From NCBI GenBank assembly GCA_963818965.1, contig CAWFUG010000011.1:64001-128000 (forward strand): a stretch of 64,000 nucleotides of DNA. The letters are read 5' to 3'. Made by a program: the position numbers and the translations under genes. Of the stretch, positions 2,260-43,548 are shown piece by piece (positions within the stretch are counted from its first letter, which is position 1; each line of letters opens with the position of its first letter). Source of the DNA: an uncultured Verrucomicrobiae bacterium (GTDB lineage Bacteria; Chlamydiota; Chlamydiia; Chlamydiales; Rhabdochlamydiaceae). The notes below the pieces were generated by a model. The model was given only the letters and a program-made list of their open reading frames with translations, did no database searches and was not told where the DNA came from.

Positions 2260-2562
2260 TTGGACCCACGCGTCAAACAAAGAGAAGAGGGGATCGTCAT
2301 CTCCATCAAAGTCATTCCCAAAGCCGCTCGTAGCGCCATCGTCGGTTGGGAGAATGAGCTACTAAAGGTGCGCCTAAAAGCTGTCCCCGAAAAGGGGGAA
2401 GCCAACCGAGAGCTCATCGCCTTCCTCGCTACCACCCTCCACTGTCCCAAATCCCACCTCACCCTCCTCTCTGGCGAAACGAGCCGCCACAAAAAAGTGC
2501 TCATCACCCATATGGATGAAGAAACGTTCTTGAGTAAAATTTTTCCAAAAAACGAAGCTTAA
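2260..2562 (+). CDS. DUF167/YggU family protein
   Basis: VIPKAARSAIVG, AVPEKGEANRELIAFLA, GETSRHK. Confidence 0.9.
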   Translation: MDPRVKQREEGIVISIKVIPKAARSAIVGWENELLKVRLKAVPEKGEANRELIAFLATTLHCPKSHLTLLSGETSRHKKVLITHMDEETFLSKIFPKNEA

Positions 2563-2636
2563 AGAACCACTACTTTTTCCATTGCAAAATCACAACCTAT
2601 GCGCTACGATTTCCCTTCTTTTTCCAGGAGGACACA

Positions 2637-3257
2637 GTGAATAAAACAGTCGGCATTTATCTATCGGGCAGCATCAAAAAGGGACACGAAAACCCGCAAG
2701 AGTCCTTTTGGACAGAAAGTGATATGACTCTACTGCGCAACAGCTTCCAGGAACATCAGGTTCTTTTTTTAAATCCCGCTTTTCGAACAGATGATCTCAC
2801 GGACCAACACTCTATATTCGGAAGAGACATGACACAGGTCTTTTGCTCTCACGTGGTTTTAGTCGATGCGCGCGATCGGAGAGGTCTCGGCGTAGGCGCT
2901 GAGATGATGTGGGCAAAAATCAACAAAATCCCCCTCGTCTCTTGGGCACCCAAAGAATCTCATTACAACAAAAGTAAAGCCACCCTTCTAGGAGTGTCTG
3001 TAGATAATTTCATCCACCCCTTTGTCTCTGGGCTCAGCGATCAGATCGTCGAGACTCTCGAAGAAGCGGCTATGTGGATTGAGAAAATGCTCTTAGATCC
3101 GTCCCTCGAAATTAAGGGAATCGAGCACATTCAAGCTGCCATGGCCTATTACCAAGAAAACCAATTGCCCACCGATTTGCCCATGCGCGAAATTTTAAGC
3201 TGCAATGCCCTCCAGCAGCGCTTCAAAAGACCTCTTCCGGAAGTCGCCCTGAATTAA
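2637..3257 (+). CDS. nucleoside 2-deoxyribosyltransferase-like protein
   Basis: IYLSGSI N-terminus, FLNP, D...D and GVGAEM pattern typical of the NDT-like fold; GGAGG RBS. Confidence 0.6.
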   Translation: MNKTVGIYLSGSIKKGHENPQESFWTESDMTLLRNSFQEHQVLFLNPAFRTDDLTDQHSIFGRDMTQVFCSHVVLVDARDRRGLGVGAEMMWAKINKIPLVSWAPKESHYNKSKATLLGVSVDNFIHPFVSGLSDQIVETLEEAAMWIEKMLLDPSLEIKGIEHIQAAMAYYQENQLPTDLPMREILSCNALQQRFKRPLPEVALN

Positions 3258-3267
3258 AGGAGAAAAA

Positions 3268-3603
3268 ATGAAAAAGTTTTTGGCCCTAGCTTGTCTATCC
3301 TTGAGTCAGATCCAAGCAGTAGAACACGAAGTCCAATTCGAAAACGATCGAGTCTTTGTTTCCAAGGTAGTCATAGGACCCAAAGAAGAGATCGGTCTCC
3401 ACCGCGATGCCTTACCCCAAATCGTCTTTGGAGTCAAAGGCGGGACAATCACGCGCTTAGAAGCAGACGGCAGAGAAGTCGCCGTTGCCTTTCCAACCGG
3501 CGCGTCTGTCTATCGCCCTGTCGATCCAGAAGGCGAGATGCATAGGAGCGTAAATAAATCAGACGCCCCGATCGAACTCCTCATCATCCAGCTGAAAAAA
3601 TAG
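3268..3603 (+). CDS. secreted cupin-fold protein
   Basis: Signal-peptide-like N-terminus; FENDRV, LHRD and H..VN cupin pattern. Confidence 0.7.
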   Translation: MKKFLALACLSLSQIQAVEHEVQFENDRVFVSKVVIGPKEEIGLHRDALPQIVFGVKGGTITRLEADGREVAVAFPTGASVYRPVDPEGEMHRSVNKSDAPIELLIIQLKK

Positions 3604-3658
3604 ACAACTTTTGTCCAGCAGTCTGTTGGACAATTTTTAATCTCGCAAACTGAAAAAA

Positions 3659-4777
3659 ATGAAACGAGCCCTAATAAAGTTACTCTTGTTTCCTGTTGTT
3701 GCAATACAGGGTTACGCATATGAGCTTCAAAAAGACTGGCCCGAAGTTCCAGAAATCGAACAACGTTTCATTGACAATCCCTGCGATACCCATCATCAGA
3801 TTGAAGTGTTCACTCTCAAACCGAGAGGAACAGGCCCCTTTCCAGTCGTTTTTTTATTGCACGGCCATCAACCTCCCGACCATAGCACGGGAGGGAAACA
3901 ACTCATCGAGTTAGGTTACCTTCATCCTTTTGTAAGAGAGGGTGTGATAGCCGTTGCTATTTCCATCCCAGGATTTGGCCATTCTGATGGGGATAGAGAT
4001 TTTTCAGGACCTAATTCTCAAAAGGTCGTTGCAGCTGTAGTTGACCATTTTATGCAATTTCCCTTTGTGGATCCCCAAAAAATGGGAATTTACGGGATCA
4101 GTAAAGGAGCCACTCTTGCTAGCATGGTCCACAAGTACACTCCCACCCTTTTACTACAAATTTTGGAAGCGGGTTGGTATGACCTGACCACTTGTAGTTC
4201 CTTAATGCCCGATTATCTCGAGAAAATTAAAGAAAACATAGTCATCGAAACCGGTGGATCAAAGGACAGCTTAATAGAGAGATCCGCAATCTACAATACC
4301 CAACACATCCACTGCAAAACGTTAATTCTTTTGGGCGAATTTGACGATCGAAGGACCCTCCCCTCTTCTGTCGCATTACATGACAAGCTCATTTCAGAAG
4401 AAAAAGACAGCCAACTCATCATCTACCCAAATGAACTCCATTGTTTGTCAGAAGACAAATGGAGTGCGGTTATTTCCTTTGTTAGAAAACAGTTCTTTGG
4501 CCTCTATGGCATTGGAATTAATCTTTCGCTGATCATGCCTGCCATTCACGTGGCAAAAATTCACCCCAACTCCCCTGCCGCCTTATCAAAAGCACTCCAT
4601 GTGGGGGATGTCATCCTGCGTATTTCCCCCAATAACGATGAGGAAGAAATCGACGTATTGCGCATGCCCATCCCTCAAGTGGCAGCACTGATTTTGGGAA
4701 AGAAAGGGACTGCCGTTCGTCTTCATGTCCAGCACTTCGATAAAACTCATGAAGATATCGTGATCGAGAGAGGATGA
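3659..4777 (+). CDS. secreted alpha/beta hydrolase (S9-like peptidase) with C-terminal PDZ domain
   Basis: LLHG, GISKG nucleophile elbow, GEFDDR, H; C-terminal GIGI...SPAA..LHVGDVI PDZ signature. Confidence 0.8.
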   Translation: MKRALIKLLLFPVVAIQGYAYELQKDWPEVPEIEQRFIDNPCDTHHQIEVFTLKPRGTGPFPVVFLLHGHQPPDHSTGGKQLIELGYLHPFVREGVIAVAISIPGFGHSDGDRDFSGPNSQKVVAAVVDHFMQFPFVDPQKMGIYGISKGATLASMVHKYTPTLLLQILEAGWYDLTTCSSLMPDYLEKIKENIVIETGGSKDSLIERSAIYNTQHIHCKTLILLGEFDDRRTLPSSVALHDKLISEEKDSQLIIYPNELHCLSEDKWSAVISFVRKQFFGLYGIGINLSLIMPAIHVAKIHPNSPAALSKALHVGDVILRISPNNDEEEIDVLRMPIPQVAALILGKKGTAVRLHVQHFDKTHEDIVIERG

Positions 4778-4916
4778 AAAAAGTTCTGATGGGAAAATTG
4801 AACTAGATACGAGTACAGCTTCTACCGTGAAGACTCTGGACGTAACAGTTGCATACAACTCTATCCCATGCTATCCTCGCTGGCCGAAGGCCAAATCCCT
4901 CTCCCAAAGAAAACCT

Positions 4917-5897
4917 ATGTCAGACGTGATCCAAGTTACCGACCTGTGCAAGAATTTTGTCGTCCGTCAAAATTTTCCTGGGATTTGGGGCGCCTTTAAG
5001 GGACTTTTCTGCGGGAAAAACCTCCCCCTACCCGCGATCAAGAGCTTATCTTTTTCCATCGCACAAGGGGAACGCGTTGCCTTCATCGGACCGAATGGCG
5101 CTGGAAAGTCGACGACGATTAAAATGCTGACCGGCATCCTCCACCCTTCCTCTGGGAAGATCGAGGTGTTAGGACTCGTTCCTTGGAAAGACCGGCACAA
5201 GCTGGGCTATCGCATCGGAACTGTTTTCGGACAGCGCACGCAGCTATGGTACCACTTGCCTCCTGCCGACACCTTCGATTTGTTGGCGAAAATCTACGAA
5301 ATCGAACACGGTGTTTATCAAAAACGGCTGAAAGAACTCATAGAAGTCTTCGAAATCACTCCCTTTCTCCACAAACCCGTCCGCCAGCTCTCTTTGGGAG
5401 AACGGATGCGCTGCGAACTCGTCGCATCTCTCCTGCACAACCCCTCCATTCTCTTTCTCGATGAGCCCACCATCGGTCTAGATATCAATGCCAAATTAAA
5501 GATTCGGGCCCTGCTTAATAAGTTGTCTCACGACTATGGAACCACCCTCTTTTTAACCTCCCATGACACAGCGGACATCGAACAGGTCTGCGAGCGCGTC
5601 ATCGTTTTGGATCAAGGCACGATCATTCGAGATAGTTCCCTCAAAGAGCTGAAGAGAACGTATACCAAAAAGAAAATCCTCACCCTCATCACAGATGTCG
5701 AAAAAATCTCCTTGAACTTGCCGGGGGTGAAGATCTTAGAAAATGATCATTACCAGTTCATCTGCGAGGTCGATGTGACAGAGACTCCTATCGACCACGT
5801 CATTCAAGAGGCCTTAAAACGCACAGGCATCAAAGACATCACCATCGAAGATCCTTCCATGGAAGAGATCATCCGCACACTCTACGCACAGGAGTGA
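4917..5897 (+). CDS. ABC transporter ATP-binding protein
   Basis: GPNGAGKS, LSLGERMR, FLDEPT; ATG at 4917 preferred over upstream GTG. Confidence 0.93.
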   Translation: MSDVIQVTDLCKNFVVRQNFPGIWGAFKGLFCGKNLPLPAIKSLSFSIAQGERVAFIGPNGAGKSTTIKMLTGILHPSSGKIEVLGLVPWKDRHKLGYRIGTVFGQRTQLWYHLPPADTFDLLAKIYEIEHGVYQKRLKELIEVFEITPFLHKPVRQLSLGERMRCELVASLLHNPSILFLDEPTIGLDINAKLKIRALLNKLSHDYGTTLFLTSHDTADIEQVCERVIVLDQGTIIRDSSLKELKRTYTKKKILTLITDVEKISLNLPGVKILENDHYQFICEVDVTETPIDHVIQEALKRTGIKDITIEDPSMEEIIRTLYAQE

Positions 5898-7622: not shown

Positions 7623-7805
7623 ATGAAAAAAGCGGATCTTGAAAAGCAACTCTCCAAATACGGCTGGAAATTTGCTCGCCATGGGGGGAACCATGATATA
7701 TGGACAAATGGAGAGAAGCACGAGGCTATTCCTAGACATCGAGAGATTAAAGAATACACTGCGAAGAAAATACTAAAAACAGCCCAAGACAACCCTCCTA
7801 AATAA
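7623..7805 (+). CDS. hicA: HicA family toxin
   Basis: GW...RHGGNHDIW, IPRHREI; 60 aa. Confidence 0.92.
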   Translation: MKKADLEKQLSKYGWKFARHGGNHDIWTNGEKHEAIPRHREIKEYTAKKILKTAQDNPPK

Positions 7806-7820
7806 CTCATAGGATTTTTA

Positions 7821-8249
7821 ATGGAATTAGAAGGAAGAGTTTGGAAAGATGGAAGATGGTGGATTATCGAAGTTCCTTGTCTGAATATCACAACTCAAGG
7901 AAAAACGAAAAAAAATGCATTTGTAATGATTCAAGATGCTGTGCTCGAACTTATGACAAGTTATTTCAACAATCTGAATGAAAAATTCGAAATATCTGTT
8001 CATGAATACAACGGAGATTGCTTCGGGTTGACTTCCAATAATAACAATCTTCTTCTGTCGTTTCTTCTCATAAGACAAAGAGAAGAGAGCGGCTTGAGTA
8101 TTCGTGAAGTAGCTAAACGTCTTTCAGCTAAGAGTCCAAATACCTATGCCCAGTATGAAAAAGGCAAAATCAGTTTTTCAATAGATCAATACGAAAAACT
8201 CATACACGCCATTAATCCCAGCCGAACCACGGTTTTAAGAGTGGTATAA
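7821..8249 (+). CDS. hicB: HicB family antitoxin with C-terminal HTH
   Basis: VP.L...TQGKT...A..MIQDA HicB motif plus XRE-like HTH. Confidence 0.88.
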   Translation: MELEGRVWKDGRWWIIEVPCLNITTQGKTKKNAFVMIQDAVLELMTSYFNNLNEKFEISVHEYNGDCFGLTSNNNNLLLSFLLIRQREESGLSIREVAKRLSAKSPNTYAQYEKGKISFSIDQYEKLIHAINPSRTTVLRVV

Positions 8250-8303: not shown

Positions 8304-8307
8304 AGGT

Positions 8308-8476
8308 TATACCCCGCGCGCTTAGGAATGGTGCATTTGAGCGCGTCAAAGCCCCGCGATTCCACGATCGAAGAGGGGGTCTGTATTTTTCTTCAATACA
8401 GGCCCCCTCTTCGATCGTGGAATCGCGGGAGCTGATCAAAGGCTCAAATGCACCATTCCTAAGCGCGCGGGGTATA
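8308..8476. mobile_element. palindromic MITE family A, subfamily A1, intergenic copy
   Basis: 169 bp from TATA to TATA with long terminal and internal inverted repeats; core homologous to the copies at 53942 and 59046. Confidence 0.92.
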
Positions 8477-8502
8477 GACTCCGGAAGCAAAAAAGAAGTC
8501 CC

Positions 8503-8610
8503 CGCACAGAGCATGGGCAGAAAATTGTCGTATCGCTGATACGACAATTGAGCTGGACTCATTTTATTGCCCTAATCCCCATCAAGCACGACATGAAGAG
8601 CGAATATTGC
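8503..8610 (+). pseudogene. YhcG/DUF1016 N-terminal domain fragment
   Basis: Reads RTEHGQKIVVSLIRQLSWTHFIALIPIK; contains hairpin 8523-8549. Confidence 0.7.
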
Positions 8611-8743
8611 GAAAGGACTCAGCTGCTCTATCAGAGTGCAGGTAAGATGTTTTTCTCAAAAAAATTGCTGCACTACCACTTGTATTATTTTGCTCAAAAA
8701 AGTACTATCTCCGTGAATCTACAACACGTAAGAAGGAGTAAAG

Positions 8744-9037
8744 ATGAAAAGTCTACTTGTTTTAGGGTTAGCTCTCAGTACGTTTGCTTTTGGAAATGAA
8801 TCCACGTATTCAGACGGAAAAATGGTTGAAGGGAAATATTATCCTCATCTTGAAGCAATTCATGTAAAGCAAAGCGGTATCTTTGTCGACTTTGAGGGGG
8901 AAGAACATCGAGTTGATGGACTGCATTCCGATGGACGAGGTATTTATGTTGTACGCATGCCCGTTAATGAATGGAGATGCTCAAAGGGTCATGCCAATCC
9001 ACCATGGGCTGAGCGTTGCTTAACTTGCCGTGAATAA
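8744..9037 (+). CDS. small secreted protein with C-terminal Zn-ribbon-like motif
   Basis: AGGAG RBS, signal peptide, WRCSKGH...CLTC. Confidence 0.75.
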   Translation: MKSLLVLGLALSTFAFGNESTYSDGKMVEGKYYPHLEAIHVKQSGIFVDFEGEEHRVDGLHSDGRGIYVVRMPVNEWRCSKGHANPPWAERCLTCRE

Positions 9038-9910
9038 ATGAGTTCTAGAGCTTATAAAACAACCCTGCTGGCGGGATCGATTTTGTTGATCGCCGCCAGC
9101 ACTCTATGTTTTTTTAGTTGCAAGTTTTCAAGAGCTCCTGTCGCTGCTTGCGATCAAGAAGCTATTGAGAGTTTTTTTAGAAGAGTATTTGTACGGGATG
9201 GCTTCGGATATACCTTCTTTGGAAATAAGCCCGCCTCCTGCATTGGGTATTTTGATCCCATTCCTATCGACAATTGGGACAGAACTCAAGCGAATAACAT
9301 TATAAAGGAGGGCTGGGAATCTTGGAAACATAGATTGCAAAAAATTAAGATTCGAGACTACCTCTTTATAGAAGAGATATCTGAAACCGATCCTAGTTTG
9401 AAAGTTATAACCTGCGTGAACAAACGAGCTTTTGTTAAGACTGTTGATACCTATCGCGAATTATTTGAACGAGTACTACAAAGAGAGATAACTGGGATAC
9501 AACTTCTGAAAGAGTTGGAGGATCATCGAGAAGGATTATTTGATGTTGTACACCATCATGAAGGGCTCTATGGCATTTTGTTAGGTTATGGGAAAGAAAA
9601 TGCCTTCTTATTCCAAAGACGTATGAATCTTAACATTTACAACCCTTGTCCTACCTTTTCTCTATGCGAAATTCATGGAAAAGAAGCCTCTTCTCTTGAA
9701 GAAGAGACCCACTTCCTGAAAAATTTAGATACAGTTGCGGAAGACACTCCCTTATCCCCCATTTCACTCCCTGTATTCATAGGCATCAAAGAGTCTGATG
9801 AAAGTCAAAGACTCATACAGCATTATCGCTCTGTCCGTAAAGAGCTCACACAAGTCTTGTATAGCGACAATTTTATGGATAAGATCGTACATCAGCTCAG
9901 TTCTGGATAG
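9038..9910 (+). CDS. hypothetical membrane-anchored protein
   Basis: 290 aa, abuts the upstream stop (TAA-ATG), N-terminal hydrophobic segment. Confidence 0.75.
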   Translation: MSSRAYKTTLLAGSILLIAASTLCFFSCKFSRAPVAACDQEAIESFFRRVFVRDGFGYTFFGNKPASCIGYFDPIPIDNWDRTQANNIIKEGWESWKHRLQKIKIRDYLFIEEISETDPSLKVITCVNKRAFVKTVDTYRELFERVLQREITGIQLLKELEDHREGLFDVVHHHEGLYGILLGYGKENAFLFQRRMNLNIYNPCPTFSLCEIHGKEASSLEEETHFLKNLDTVAEDTPLSPISLPVFIGIKESDESQRLIQHYRSVRKELTQVLYSDNFMDKIVHQLSSG

Positions 9911-9964
9911 ACCGAGAGCTGAATATTGGCAACTGGAAAGAAGCATTAGGATTTTCAATGGAAT

Positions 9965-9987
9965 TATACCCCGCGCGCTTAGGAATG
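9965..9987. mobile_element. solo terminal arm of MITE family A1
   Basis: TATACCCCGCGCGCTTAGGAATG identical to 8308-8330. Confidence 0.85.
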
Positions 9988-11151
9988 AGAGCGCATCGTG
10001 CGAAAATACTCAGCTGCACTCTCAGATTCCTGAACTGCAATTCTCACCCTGGCAAACATCTCCCTTTCAAATTGCTCTGTCAATCTTGGCCAGTCGATAG
10101 GTTTTGGAGAAGCAGCGAGTAGAGCTGATAAGACTCTGGCATCTTCGAGCACATTATTCCCACCGAGCGCTCGTTCTGGAGGCATGGCATGAGCGGAATC
10201 ACCTATCAGAGTCACTCTGCCCGTTGGAACCATAGGAAATTGGTCAGAGTTAGGGAATTGAGTCGTGCGTATGAACCAAGGCGCCATGATCGCTTCCGCT
10301 GGAGTATCGTGTACCAGTTTTTGCAAGTTCTCGTGCCAAGGTTCACTTCTCATCAAATACTTACAGCGCTCCAAGATGCGCATGCGCGATTCCACTCCTT
10401 GATCAAACTGATACCAAGGAGCACTGTGGTCTTTTATTTCTTCTGAAATTGCCCAGAAAATCGCAGGGCTTCTATCCTGCCTTTCTGAAAAGCAGACACC
10501 CATGTAATGGGAATTAACTCCCTGAAAACGGACGAATCCCGTTTTGTTTAGAGGAAGAAGCGCATCCCACTCTGGAGTCCGATCCATCTGTCCTCCCAAG
10601 AGGACACGATTGCTATCGACCCCCTTTGGAATCGATCCCAGGCCATTTTGGTATACTAATGGCAAAAGCTCTCTCACGGTTGATGTTGCCCCATCACATC
10701 CAACAAGCAAATCGCCCGTAGCAGATGAGCCATCTTCAAAATGAGCGATCACTCGATCGCCCTTATCTTCGAACAGGACGAGACGCTTGTTCCATTCTAT
10801 GTCGATCCCTTCCTGCAAAAGATTCCTGAGCTCTGAACGAAGAAACTGAACGGCGGCATCTTGGCCCTGTGAAACACTGAAAAAAGGTTCCATTTTTTCA
10901 TTCGTACAAGTAAATCCATCACCCACATCAGCCACCTTGGCCCTAGACAACCGACTCATTTTTTCAGGCGTTAGGAGTGCCGTTAATGCGCTCATTCCCA
11001 GCGAGCGAATTGAAATCCGATACCCTTGAGAGCGACTCGTAGGGCTCTCATCCCTTTCAAAAAGGGAGACATCGAACCCAGCCTTGACAAGGCCCTGAGC
11101 CAAAGCCAAACCACCGAGTCCCGCTCCGATAATCAATATTCGATTGCGCAT
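9979..11151 (-). CDS. FAD-dependent monooxygenase (group A flavoprotein hydroxylase-like)
   Basis: GAGLGGL, DLLVGCDG, VTLIGDSAHAMPP. Confidence 0.9.
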   Translation of the reverse strand: MRNRILIIGAGLGGLALAQGLVKAGFDVSLFERDESPTSRSQGYRISIRSLGMSALTALLTPEKMSRLSRAKVADVGDGFTCTNEKMEPFFSVSQGQDAAVQFLRSELRNLLQEGIDIEWNKRLVLFEDKGDRVIAHFEDGSSATGDLLVGCDGATSTVRELLPLVYQNGLGSIPKGVDSNRVLLGGQMDRTPEWDALLPLNKTGFVRFQGVNSHYMGVCFSERQDRSPAIFWAISEEIKDHSAPWYQFDQGVESRMRILERCKYLMRSEPWHENLQKLVHDTPAEAIMAPWFIRTTQFPNSDQFPMVPTGRVTLIGDSAHAMPPERALGGNNVLEDARVLSALLAASPKPIDWPRLTEQFEREMFARVRIAVQESESAAEYFRTMRSHS

Positions 11152-11152
11152 T

Positions 11153-11674
11153 TCAGTCTCCTTTCTCGTGACTTAGCCATTTCATTTCTGCTTCAAGATG
11201 AGAGATCCCGTATCTCAATGCCTTGAGGCGCGTTATTTTCTGGGGAAAATCCGCTATATTCTCTAGTCTCTCTTCGATTTTTTTATATTCTTCGTGCATC
11301 TTTTCCACTTTTTCGAATCTTTCCTGAAATAGCCGGATCATCTCGCTTCGATCGGTTACGAAAAAGAGTTTGAGAAGAAACTCATTACGTGGGGTTTCCT
11401 CACCTGTCGGACTTTCGAACCAAGTCTTAAATTCCATCCGTCCCATCTCTGTAATAGAAAAGATCTCTTTCTTTTTCTTTCCCACATAGACAACTTTGGA
11501 AAGCGCTTTTCCTTCTTCAGCCAAAACCCTTAACATCGGATAAATTGTCGAATCCGATTCGCGCCAGAAATAAACGGTCGATCGACCCATCAGAGATTTG
11601 ATTTCATATCCAGAACTAGGACCATCGAGGAGGATCCCCAAAATAGCGTATCGTGTTTTATTGACCAACTTCAT
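11153..11674 (-). CDS. PadR/AphA family transcriptional regulator
   Basis: AILGIL...SGYEI, FW......IYP.L, ITE.G. Confidence 0.9.
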   Translation of the reverse strand: MKLVNKTRYAILGILLDGPSSGYEIKSLMGRSTVYFWRESDSTIYPMLRVLAEEGKALSKVVYVGKKKKEIFSITEMGRMEFKTWFESPTGEETPRNEFLLKLFFVTDRSEMIRLFQERFEKVEKMHEEYKKIEERLENIADFPQKITRLKALRYGISHLEAEMKWLSHEKGD

Positions 11675-11679
11675 GAAAA

Positions 11680-11698
11680 ATACCCAGTTTCTAGGTAT
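11680..11698. promoter_or_regulatory. candidate PadR operator
   Basis: ATACCCAG-TTT-CTAGGTAT imperfect inverted repeat directly upstream of the padR start. Confidence 0.5.
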
Positions 11699-11820
11699 AT
11701 TACCTGAAATGGCGACTTTTCAGAAAGGCGAATCATTTTTTTAGAAAACAGATACAGGGATGTATCCCTGGATGAATGAAAATTTGAAACGGGGAATCGG
11801 AACGTTTCCAAATTTAAAAG

Positions 11821-11965
11821 ATTGTCGCCACATTGTGGCGACAATTGGCCATTGAATGTGGTAATGGATTCAATGACAAAAACTTAAGGCGCATGATGTA
11901 GTTTGCCGAAGTTTTTGACGAACAGATTGTCGTATCGCTGATACGACAATTGAGCTGGACTCATT
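11821..11965 (+). pseudogene. YhcG/DUF1016 N-terminal domain fragment with premature stop
   Basis: One frame reads IVATLWRQLAIECGNGFNDKNLRRMM*FAEVFDEQIVVSLIRQLSWTH; hairpins at both ends. Confidence 0.8.
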
Positions 11966-12081
11966 GTATGGTTCCATCTCTCCCTCCCTATACAAACACG
12001 CTCTATTTCTCTCTATTCGCCTTAAGCGAATAGAGAGGTACGGGGGCGCGGGGGATGATAAACCCCCGAAAAAGCGCGTAT

Positions 12082-12708
12082 TCACTTAACGCCGAAGAGC
12101 ACCTCTTTAGAGGTCACGAGCTTCCCACCGGCGGCGGTAATTGCGGCGAAGCTGAGCGCTTCGTCGTGGGGCTGCAGATTGATCGCCCGACAGGCATCTA
12201 CAACTACGCTTACCTGAAAACCTAATTGCAGGGCATCTAGCGAGGAATAGAGGACGCAGTACTCGGTGACGAGACCTGCGATATAGAGCTCAGTCACGTG
12301 GTAGAGCTTTAAGAAAGTGTCGACCCCGGTCGAAGCGTGCTTTTGGTTGTCGAAAAAAGCGCTATAGCTATCGATCTCTTTGTTTGTTCCCTTTAAAAAG
12401 CAGCGATTGATCTTGTCCTGGTCTAGACTAGCGGATAGCTCAGCGCCCTTGGTGCCATTTACGCAATGGACAGGCCACAGGATCTGTTCCCCACCGCCCA
12501 CTTGAATCACGTCCCCTATTTTTTTACCCAGATGAGAAGCGGCAAAGCTGACATGGTCGGCGGGATGGTAATCTTGGGTGGCGACGATGATCTCAAAACC
12601 GGGGATCAGAGTATTGACGATGGGGATGATTTCATCTCCTTGGGGCACGGCGAGGGCGCCGCCGAGGAGAAAATCGTTTTGTAAATCGACGATGAGAAGT
12701 GCTTTCAC
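12082..12708 (-). CDS. pncA: nicotinamidase/pyrazinamidase
   Basis: [37 protein letters not shown]. Confidence 0.95.
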
Positions 12709-14180
12709 GGGGAGTCTTTGGGTTTCAGGTCTTCGATGAGCCGCAGTTTGGTTTCATAGAGCGATTTTTCTAGGCCGACGAAATAGGGTTGGGGGAAGAG
12801 AAACCGGCGGATGGCGGGGTGAAATTGCCCTAGCTCTTGCAACGTCCTCTCGCGGATCTGTTGGAGGGGAAGATTGGGGTAGACCCGCTTTCCCTCTCTA
12901 AATACGGGGATGAGTAGGTCTTTATATTGAGCGTGCGAAGAGAGTGTCTTGGATCGGGCTGGATCGAGAGGATCAATGATCTGTGGGTTAGCAGGGAGAT
13001 CTGTGTGGATATCGAAGATCATGTCACCGAGATTGCCTCTCTCATCGGAGTAGCGACGCACCTGCAAGATCCCTGGATTTGTGACTTTGAGCATCTGCTC
13101 AGAGATTTTAACTTTGTATTGCCACTTCCCCTCTTGATCTTTTAAAGCGGAGAGTTTGTAAACACCATCGAGAGCAGGCTGATCTTTTCCCGTGACGAGA
13201 TTTGTGCCTACGCCCCAGAGGTCGATCTTCGCCCCTTGGTGCTTAAGGTCGCTGATGATGAGCTCATCGAGTTCATTGCTCGCCATGATTTTCGCCTTGG
13301 GAAAACCGGCTTCATCGAGAAGTTTGCGGATCTCAATACTCAAATGCGCTAAATCCCCTGAATCGAGACGGACGCCGAACATCTCTACGCCCCGCTTGCG
13401 CATCCGCCGAGCGGTCTCAATCGCCTTTTTAACCCCACCGATCGTATCGTAAGTGTCGACTAAAAAAATGCAATTGTGAGGCATCACATCGGCATATGCA
13501 TCGAAAGAGTCTTCCTCATCATCGAAGGCCATGATCCAACTGTGCGCATGCGTTCCTCGAACGGGAATGCCGTAGACTTTTCCGGCGAGGACATTTGAAG
13601 TGGAGTCGCAACCGCCGATGAAAGCCGCGCGGCTGGCGGCTAGCGCGCCATCGATCCCTTGCGCTCGACGCATGCCGAATTCGACGACGGGATCAGGTCT
13701 TGCGGCAAAACAGATCCGAGCCGCTTTCGTCGCAATCAGCGACTGAAAATTGATGATGTTGAGAAGAGCGCTCTCTAACAGCTGCGCATGGAGCATCGGT
13801 CCCCTCACGCGTAGAAGCGGCTCTTGTGGACAGATGGGAGTCCCTTCAGGAACCGCATCGATATCGCAGCGCAATTTTAAGGTGCTCAAGTAATCCAAAA
13901 AAGCGCGCTCGAAAAGAGGACTCCCATCCTCTGTTTTGAGCTGCTCGAGATAAGCTAAATCGCTTGGCTCATAGTGAAAGTTTTCCAAAAAATCGAGCGC
14001 AGTCCCCAACCCTGCGGCAATCGCAAATCCCCCGTTGAAGGGTTTTCTTCTGAAGAAGAGGTGAAAGACTGCCTCTCGCTCCGCCATCCCCTTTTTCCAG
14101 TAGCCATAGGCCATGGTCAATTCATAGAGATCTGTGAGGAGGGTAAGGGAATCGCGGTAGATCGAGTTATGTGTTTGCAT
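12705..14180 (-). CDS. pncB: nicotinate phosphoribosyltransferase
   Basis: [37 protein letters not shown]. Confidence 0.95.
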
Positions 14181-42669: not shown

Positions 42670-43548
42670 TTACGCATTTTTAGCTAAGTCTTTGAATGTG
42701 AAACTGGGATCCAGTTTCAATTCAGAGACTACTCCCTTCAGAGCGCGAAAAGGAGTCGTATATGAAATTTTCTCCCCATCTCTGCCGGTAAACACAAATC
42801 CTTTTTTGCGGCCTACTATGTAAGCCTCTATATTCTTAAACAAATGTCGAGGATAGGAGACTTCTTCATCAAAACATAGCACAGAACGATTAAAATCGAT
42901 GTCTTCTATTTTCAATGAGAGAATTTCTTCCAGAGGCCTATACCCACCCAGATAGAATAATTTGACCAAGATTTGTTCTCGGAGATCCATTCGGTCTAAT
43001 AGATCTATATAAGATTCAAAAGCGAGCAACCTTCTTTGCGTTCGAATCCGATCAAGATCTTTTGCCTCAGGGATATAGCCACAAGTCTCTTTAGACAGCC
43101 ATTCGGCAAAATTTTTATACAACAAAACATAATCTTCCCGCTTGGTGACAGACCAATCCTCGAAACAACGGACTTCCTCTATAACAAAAGAAGGGTCCTG
43201 CAAGGATAGATCTTCTAGGACAACCGTTTTTTTCTGATTTGAAACAAGAAGAACAAGTCCTGCGCCAACAAGGTCATGCATCATTCGAAGATACCTTTCT
43301 CCAAATATCCTATCATTGCGCATCCCGCCCCCCCATAAAAGAACCAAAGCAGAAAACGGCACCTGAGCAATCTCGTTTCTAAAGAGAGCTATTTGCCTAT
43401 GTTGATCCTCAGAACACCTCGAAAAATCAATCTTTAGGGCGGATAGATTCTCTTCGTTCTGCTCAGGATCGACAGAAAGACAAATCTCAAGCAATTGCTC
43501 ATAAGCAGGCCTTTCTTTTCCGTTTGTATATATTTTTTTATTCCCCAT
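42670..43548 (-). CDS. protein with a truncated tyrosine-recombinase-like C-terminal domain
   Basis: LFYLGGYRPLEEILSLKIEDIDF box-I-like motif, GFVF; no HxxR or terminal Tyr segment. Confidence 0.6.
   Translation of the reverse strand: MGNKKIYTNGKERPAYEQLLEICLSVDPEQNEENLSALKIDFSRCSEDQHRQIALFRNEIAQVPFSALVLLWGGGMRNDRIFGERYLRMMHDLVGAGLVLLVSNQKKTVVLEDLSLQDPSFVIEEVRCFEDWSVTKREDYVLLYKNFAEWLSKETCGYIPEAKDLDRIRTQRRLLAFESYIDLLDRMDLREQILVKLFYLGGYRPLEEILSLKIEDIDFNRSVLCFDEEVSYPRHLFKNIEAYIVGRKKGFVFTGRDGEKISYTTPFRALKGVVSELKLDPSFTFKDLAKNA

Follow-up and report, generated by a model that had tools for sequence, protein, structure and literature searches.

Two DUF1016 pieces on either side of four genes

The metagenome-assembled genome of an uncultured Rhabdochlamydiaceae bacterium (G000; 2.24 Mb in 12 contigs, 87.85% complete) contains two pieces of YhcG/DUF1016 nuclease sequence that flank a block of four genes and carry short, perfect coding palindromes. 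We analyzed these pieces, their palindromes, and the genes around them in a 64,000-nt stretch of DNA (the window; G000 contig C11, positions 64001-128000), and coordinates given without a contig or locus are positions in the window. The available sections of two reports describe YhcG/DUF1016 proteins as a very widespread, uncharacterised nuclease family encoded on mobile elements and in defence loci (PMC4316617, PMC9881135). In a third, also available in part, the YhcG catalytic domain is predicted to be similar to Holliday-junction resolvases (PMC1189080).

For comparison we used the DUF1016 subfamily closest to the window pieces, labeled type 1 here. A six-sequence type-1 query fetched 80 loci with 57-100% amino-acid identity from Chlamydiae, Verrucomicrobia, Legionella, delta-proteobacteria, Planctomycetes, and Methanosarcina. 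The region was spanned in 79 of the 80, and these form the set for the covariation and 40-mer counts; 78 of the genes were used to build a DNA profile for nhmmer. The two palindromes of type-1 genes, H1 and H2, occupy positions 169-193 and 277-301 of this profile.

Both pieces are DUF1016 fragments, as the original prediction had held. For Pfam DUF1016_N (PF17761), the right piece gives matches over positions 46-98 (E 2.8e-11) and, in a second search, 47-97 (E 1.5e-12), at 44.3-48.3 bits where the cut-off is 32.8; it also aligns with positions 165-323 of the type-1 DNA profile (E 2.7e-33). The left piece matches Pfam positions 81-114 below the cut-off (E 0.002, 18.6-20.1 bits) and is identified by the DNA profile, at positions 272-358 (E 4.3e-16). 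The right piece is interrupted by an in-frame TAG (11899-11901), and a TAA precedes H1 by one codon. Compared with intact genes it lacks one codon, with its hairpins 105 rather than 108 nt apart. It had been described as starting exactly at one hairpin and ending just after the other. The start is 0-4 nt before H1, and the 21 nt preceding H1 fit neither hairpin-upstream sequence in a weight-matrix comparison; the end lies 15-22 nt beyond H2.

The left piece was thought to be without exactly the segment between the hairpins that the right piece holds, and weight matrix and nhmmer agree on this. Specifically, the 21 nt that lead into the left hairpin fit what is normally found upstream of H1 (RAEYGxx) and not what is found upstream of H2; their score for the former, +10.6 bits, was attained by a fraction of 1e-5 among 200,000 random genomic 21-mers. 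Within segment A, an RLRK 12-mer at offset -48 adds to the match (p 0.003); segment A was undetected by nhmmer and by Pfam when searched with the hairpin alone. The left piece thus reads as A-hairpin-SWTH, with a precise, in-register loss of H1 and of the segment between the hairpins. On the 5' side it stops at a miniature inverted-repeat transposable element (MITE), and on the 3' side it adjoins what is left of a monooxygenase 3' end. The C-terminal PD-(D/E)XK nuclease domain (PF06250) and an intact reading frame are absent at the locus, and the pieces are pseudogene fragments, not genes (Table 1).

A profile search of the 87.85% complete G000 genome found DUF1016 fragments only, and no intact gene. 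DUF1016 matches occur in 22 of 41 genomes, G000 included, and intact genes are common in relatives. In PADLOC, intact relatives match PDC-S02 (E 1.2e-127), a candidate defence family, and a sequence search of the PDB with one of them returned 0 matches among solved structures. The sole PF06250 match in G000 (C8:367177-367575) lies in a 175-aa open frame and is a fragment of the YhcG C-terminal nuclease domain. This fragment is unmatched by the type-1 DNA profile and so probably comes from another DUF1016 subfamily.

Table 1. Features of the locus, in window coordinates; the names pncA and pncB are tentative
Feature	Position	Strand	Basis or remark
hicA toxin	7623-7805	+	Pfam HicA_toxin, E 4.4e-13; left neighbour of the locus
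hicB-type antitoxin with HTH domain	7821-8249	+	HTH_3, E 1.4e-8
Palindromic MITE, 171 bp	8307-8477		35-nt terminal inverted repeats 100%, inner 35-nt pair 97%
Segment A, reads RLRKQKRSPRTEHGQK	8478-8523	+	DUF1016 sequence normally preceding H1; weight matrix
Left 40-bp copy	8524-8563	+	H2-type hairpin 8524-8548 plus 15 nt reading (L)SWTH; nhmmer 272-313
Segment C', FIALIPIKHDMKSE	8564-8605	+	DUF1016 downstream of H2, end of left piece; nhmmer reaches 358 at 8605
Monooxygenase 3'-end relic	8597-8635	-	82% identical to 9988-10026
97-aa protein, signal-like N-terminus	8744-9037	+	No Pfam or PADLOC family
290-aa protein	9038-9910	+	No Pfam or PADLOC family; large lineage-specific paralogue family
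hicA/hicB-junction copy, 20 nt	9947-9966	+	19/20 identical to 7810-7829
MITE-end copy, 24 nt	9964-9987	+	100%; supplies monooxygenase stop codon 9979-9981
FAD-dependent monooxygenase	9979-11151	-	Pfam FAD_binding_3, E 9.8e-24
PadR-family regulator	11153-11674	-	PadR, E 1.2e-8; Vir_act_alpha_C, E 6.4e-11
Right DUF1016 piece	11817-11972	+	H1, segment B, H2, plus 15-22 nt
H1 of right piece	11821-11845	+	nhmmer, Pfam
Segment B of right piece	11846-11925	+	nhmmer, Pfam
H2 of right piece	11926-11950	+	nhmmer, Pfam
pncA-like isochorismatase	12082-12708	-	Pfam Isochorismatase, E 3.9e-24
pncA-like and nicotinate phosphoribosyltransferase-like pair	12082-14180	-	Conserved right neighbour

Palindromes built into type-1 genes

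The strict hairpin pattern (ATTGTCG-N11-CGACAAT) has three matches in the window, at 8524, 11821, and 11926, where ~0.01 would be expected; three were reached in 0 of 100 shuffles. All three hairpins are as first described, each with a perfect 11-bp stem and a 3-nt loop; their folding energies as single-stranded DNA are -10.7 and -12.4 kcal/mol. The exact 40-mer at 8524-8563 and 11926-11965 is likewise present, and when it is extended, 43 of 44 nt agree. Rfam gave nothing on H1 or H2, and only sub-threshold microRNA-like matches to the MITE hairpin.

These palindromes are a regular part of the type-1 genes. H1 and H2 are exactly 108 nt apart in 79 of 79 genes, from Chlamydiae to Methanosarcina. 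At least 10 of 11 pairs form in 45 of 53 distinct H2 sequences and in 24 of 65 distinct H1 sequences, and 47 of the 65 form at least 8. Mean pairing is 8.28 of 11 for H1 and 9.89 for H2, compared with 2.80 +/- 0.87 at other positions of the gene (largest 5.8). With the same peptides and resampled synonymous codons, mean pairing falls to 4.3 (H1) and 4.9 (H2). Across the 79-sequence alignment, 85.9% of cells are paired versus 72.4% in shuffles, and both sides of a pair have changed in 212 cells versus 72 expected, a number reached by 0 of 500 shuffles. Such double changes occur in 16 of the 22 pairs, and sliding the partner by 1-3 columns lowers pairing to 29-57%. H1 and H2 are kept by compensatory changes beyond what the shuffled, slid, and codon-choice controls give, that is, they covary.

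Mismatches in H2 are symmetric (G-T plus T-G, 21; A-C plus C-A, 21), which points to symmetry at the level of DNA; a sense-strand RNA helix is not favored, given the lack of an excess of G-T over A-C mismatches. The two palindromes also resemble each other. Arm differences between H1 and H2 average 6.21 within a gene versus 7.62 between genes (0 of 10,000 permutations), and the 5' arms are identical in 18 of 76 genes. This likeness may stem in part from the shared codon usage of a genome. The outer arms, 7 and 9 nt long, are common to H1 and H2, so that the palindromes are also direct repeats and would be natural places for slippage, template switching, and breakage.

In more distant DUF1016 subfamilies the second (H2) place is still palindromic, with other sequences. 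The yhcG gene of Escherichia coli K-12 can form a perfect 15-bp stem at the place of H2 (L179, 8205-8237), and two shorter CAGAC/GTCTG copies lie just upstream. We take H1 and H2 to be ancestral to the gene, not insertions. The Methanosarcina genomes (L085, L088, L090, L099) hold type-1 DUF1016 genes with 63-65% amino-acid identity to the chlamydial reference, which implies a putative transfer between domains of life.

We found no publication that describes palindromes in the literature on DUF1016/YhcG genes. The available parts of three DUF1016 papers (PMC4316617, PMC9881135, PMC1189080) do not mention them, and yhcG is not named in a survey of inverted repeats in E. coli (PMC5941160). The closest parallel may be the mitochondrial genomes of Nematomorpha, for which the part of the report available to us describes perfect inverted repeats inside conserved coding sequence (PMC6649704). 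There, as here, protein function and DNA symmetry are both kept. As far as that part goes, however, the nematomorph palindromes are numerous, up to 284 bp long, and known from a few mitochondrial genomes, whereas here there are two 25-nt palindromes, each at a fixed position, in one prokaryotic nuclease family.

H2 and the next 15 nt are the most conserved DNA of the type-1 family, and this bears on the 40-nt repeat. The window 40-mer is found at 40/40 in one of the 79 genes, at 39/40 in one, at 38/40 in three, and at 37/40 in four (at least 37/40 in 9 of 79), and the gene with 40/40 is an unrelated one from a Pseudomonadota metagenome-assembled genome. Exact identity between the two copies therefore does not establish a recent duplication or an attachment site; we rejected it as proof of either.

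Breakpoints and the block between the pieces

The strict hairpin pattern is present in 33 family genomes out of 121 (one of the 33 is G000), and the reversed control pattern in 0 of 121. Matches are often paired 108 nt apart. Among 48 classified hairpins, 27 are in full-length genes and the rest are in fragments or solo. Most breakpoint loci in other genomes were located via this pattern, and their boundaries are biased toward hairpins accordingly. Within such a sample, DUF1016 fragments do often end at hairpins, in G000 and in other genomes, as the original prediction would have it.

Several kinds of break recur. The junction seen in the left piece (A-hairpin-SWTH, followed by TGAGCT) is found again in two other genomes, G111 (L171) and G108 (L172, 3671-3776). 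Deletion between the palindromic direct repeats, which joins H1-upstream to H2-downstream sequence in register, is therefore recurrent, with examples at window positions 8478-8605, in G111, and in G108. In one otherwise full-length gene (L186; G173:C4), H1 has collapsed to ATTGTCGCGACAAT with the loss of the central 11 nt, and the frame is shifted. In a Chlamydiia metagenome-assembled genome, a type-1 gene is cut at the 3' edge of H2 (L137), and in L167 H2-SWTHF is joined to residue ~204. Little beyond the hairpin is kept at L147, L152, L169, L174, L175, and two places in G000 (C11:307787 and C9:264848), and these fragments or solo hairpins, together with L167, end no more than 9 nt from a hairpin.

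Hairpins in dead copies are no less perfect than those in intact genes. Outside full-length type-1 genes, 12 of 21 hairpins have all four inner pairs perfect, or 10 of 18 once two from type-2 genes and a non-palindromic match are removed; in intact genes, 9 of 27 do.

Some of these loci have further features of their own. At L137 a new perfect palindrome (560-610; 20-bp stem, GAAA loop) stands in place of the 5' part of the gene. The two solo hairpins of G000 (C11:307787-307811 and C9:264848-264872) are without flanking gene homology, and the first is a perfect 11-3-11 hairpin. In G108 (L172; contig C116), three DUF1016 pieces at 2438-5644 are interleaved with a HEPN/nucleotidyltransferase-like pair, a P-loop gene, and a RhuM-like fragment, the last named tentatively from its translation; this makes a second scrambled locus similar to the one in the window.

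The block between the window pieces bears traces of several events. Pfam agrees with the original naming of a monooxygenase with PadR. The other two genes had been called a secreted pair; a pair is present, and the signal-like N-terminus was seen only by eye on the N-terminal sequences. The 290-aa protein has nine matches in G000 and as many as 15 in one relative, and 67 of the 121 family genomes have a match. The monooxygenase-PadR pair (homology over 9999-11713) also occurs in G029, a genome from another family, with amino-acid identities of 72% and 75% and without DUF1016 beside it; G014 has only the PadR gene. We rejected the idea that the monooxygenase tail is DUF1016 sequence read antisense: the G029 homologue aligns to within 4 residues of the end, so that 9988-10026 encodes the true C-terminus. 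The copy at 9947-9966 may be what remains of an earlier duplication or rearrangement. Because the block has scars of its own (8597-8635, 9947-9987) and the monooxygenase-PadR module exists elsewhere without DUF1016, the four genes are best read as a patchwork, not delivered as one cassette.

The element at 8307-8477, which folds at -47 kcal/mol, has terminal inverted repeats and ~12 further places in G000 at 75-91% identity, features by which it is classed as a MITE or palindromic element. Rickettsia palindromic elements are also multi-copy palindromic elements. The MITE is likewise such an element in an intracellular-type bacterium, but the likeness concerns the MITE and not H1 or H2. To the right of the locus, the pncB-pncA pair is also found in G001, G003, G005, G011, and other genomes.

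Little of this fits the proposal that the hairpins act as sites that mark or move gene cassettes. Hairpins are built into every intact type-1 gene examined, and so do not mark a cassette. An undescribed cassette system finds no support in a patchwork block with no recombinase nearby, and no relative examined shows the block present or absent at these boundaries. No empty site could be read: G001, of the same genus, and other relatives have pncB-pncA, but the neighbors of the pair in them map elsewhere or nowhere in G000, and in G003 and G015 the ABC-2 genes and pncAB are on different contigs. A crossover at the 40-bp repeat that would release a 3.4-kb circle is formally possible, and nothing indicates that it occurs. 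No circle or deletion joint, and no contig spanning the whole locus, was found in four public runs (X1, X2, X3, X6), which share at most 0.12 of sampled words and yielded short contigs. The single joint, in X6, which connects 8549 to 11924 with 80 letters between, comes from another organism's intact DUF1016 gene. Overall, the cassette proposal is partly supported: the hairpins are places of rearrangement, and capture of cassettes is unsupported.

No tyrosine recombinase (PF00589, six matches in G000) above the cut-off lies within ~30 kb of the locus; the nearest match, at 42685-42996, scores 25.5 bits and is below it. The 87.85% complete genome has 0 matches to Y1 transposases (PF01797), and the locus differs in this from IS200/IS605 or REP/RAYT hairpin elements, which are defined by a Y1 (HUH) transposase. 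Integron attC sites are hairpin-forming recombination sites that bound cassettes, which can excise as circles. At this locus, however, there is no integron integrase nearby and there are no GTTRRRY-type core sites; the genes are on both strands and have their own regulator, and the hairpins are perfect and inside coding sequence.

Origin of the arrangement

We consider the pieces to be the debris of decayed YhcG/DUF1016 genes that broke at their own coding palindromes, a reading to which we give a probability of about 0.6. They would be dead remnants of one or two type-1 nuclease genes (PDC-S02) in a rearrangement-prone spot, with a toxin-antitoxin pair, the MITE, and accessory genes around them. 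The left piece would have arisen by deletion from H1 to H2, followed by truncation by the MITE on one side and fusion to the monooxygenase relic on the other. The right piece is a 152-nt stub cut 0-4 nt before H1 and ~20 nt after H2, and the four intervening genes would have been assembled in several steps. The source could be one gene, through tandem duplication and later deletions, or two copies that each decayed.

The likely route is slippage or template switching between and within H1 and H2, which would explain the recurrent 108-nt deletion, the deletion of the H1 center, and arms that are kept alike. Mutation by template switching and slippage at quasipalindromes and short inverted repeats is a known route in E. 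coli, according to the portion available of PMC7202029. In both settings imperfect inverted repeats would be hot spots, one arm may be copied from the other, and deletions end at repeats. The present case differs in that H1 and H2 stand at two fixed places of a protein-coding family across bacteria and archaea, and in that the route here is inferred.

Several points weigh against this reading. The pieces are neatly complementary and both touch H1 and H2, and a reciprocal site-specific event would give the same picture. The palindromes that SbcCD is known to cleave are far longer than stems of 11 bp. The loci found via the hairpin pattern favor hairpin boundaries from the outset, and among fragments found instead by protein search (including the best 150 of 425 matches of one search), a hand count that is only suggestive places ~4 of roughly 12 boundaries at hairpins. 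None of the closely related genomes examined gives the ancestral state of the locus, and decay at palindromes leaves their existence unexplained.

The palindromes could instead be true recombination sites, at which a structure-specific enzyme, perhaps the YhcG nuclease itself, exchanges DNA at the edges of extruded hairpins or cruciforms. A circle with a hairpin and cargo would have integrated at the hairpin of a resident DUF1016 remnant, and could re-excise via the 40-bp repeat. We think this unlikely. In its favor, one crossover at a hairpin edge, between a circle H2-s-C'...X and a resident A-H1-B-H2-s-Y, would yield the present order in a single step. Homology is one-sided at hairpin edges in several genomes, the three pieces in G108 alternate with accessory genes, a HEPN/nucleotidyltransferase pair among them, the two palindromes are more alike within a gene than between genes, and the available part of PMC1189080 compares the YhcG domain to Holliday-junction resolvases. 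Yet the model needs two earlier DUF1016 remnants anyway, and G000 has fragments with no intact gene found. Three of the five fragment boundaries are off hairpins, namely the two outer boundaries of the left piece and the 3' boundary of the right piece. The unrelated scars within the block, and the lack of Y1 transposases in the genome and of tyrosine recombinases above the cut-off within ~30 kb of the locus, also speak against it. An extension of this model is equally doubtful: H1 and H2, extruded as hairpins or cruciforms, would be cis-acting DNA sites for YhcG-type nucleases with their resolvase-like domain, whose genes would rearrange themselves by deletion, duplication, and exchange at their own palindromes, take up accessory genes, and leave solo hairpins, with the locus as a spent product.

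Retention of the stubs as transcript-end or insulator elements is another idea that we regard as improbable; it would explain retention, not origin, and is compatible with decay at palindromes. On this view transcription of pncBA would stop at the right piece, ahead of the PadR promoter. Read on the minus strand, H1 (11845-11821) followed by CTTTTAAATT matches a terminator consensus and is located after pncA and before the region of the PadR promoter; the solo hairpin at C11:307787 is flanked by convergent open frames, at their 3' ends; and in E. coli K-12 a perfect 11-3-11 hairpin stands 16 nt after gltD (L179, 633-657). The indications of termination are consensus matches, however, and the solo hairpin at C9:264848 lies between divergent frames.

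It is very improbable that the arrangement is an assembly chimera at the repeated 40-mer: although repeats can mislead assemblers and this metagenome-assembled genome has 12 contigs and is 87.85% complete, 151-nt contigs from run X1 (possibly the source sample) span 11762-11912, across the X|H1 junction, and 9970-10120 with no differing letters, and 40 bases are fewer than the read length and the usual assembly word size.

The palindromes and the breakpoints at them have two implications for the family. For annotators, they mean that hairpin-bounded DUF1016 debris and solo hairpins are common. More broadly, coding palindromes that covary also mark where genes break, and this may offer a handle on how an enzyme or the replication machinery acts at such DNA.

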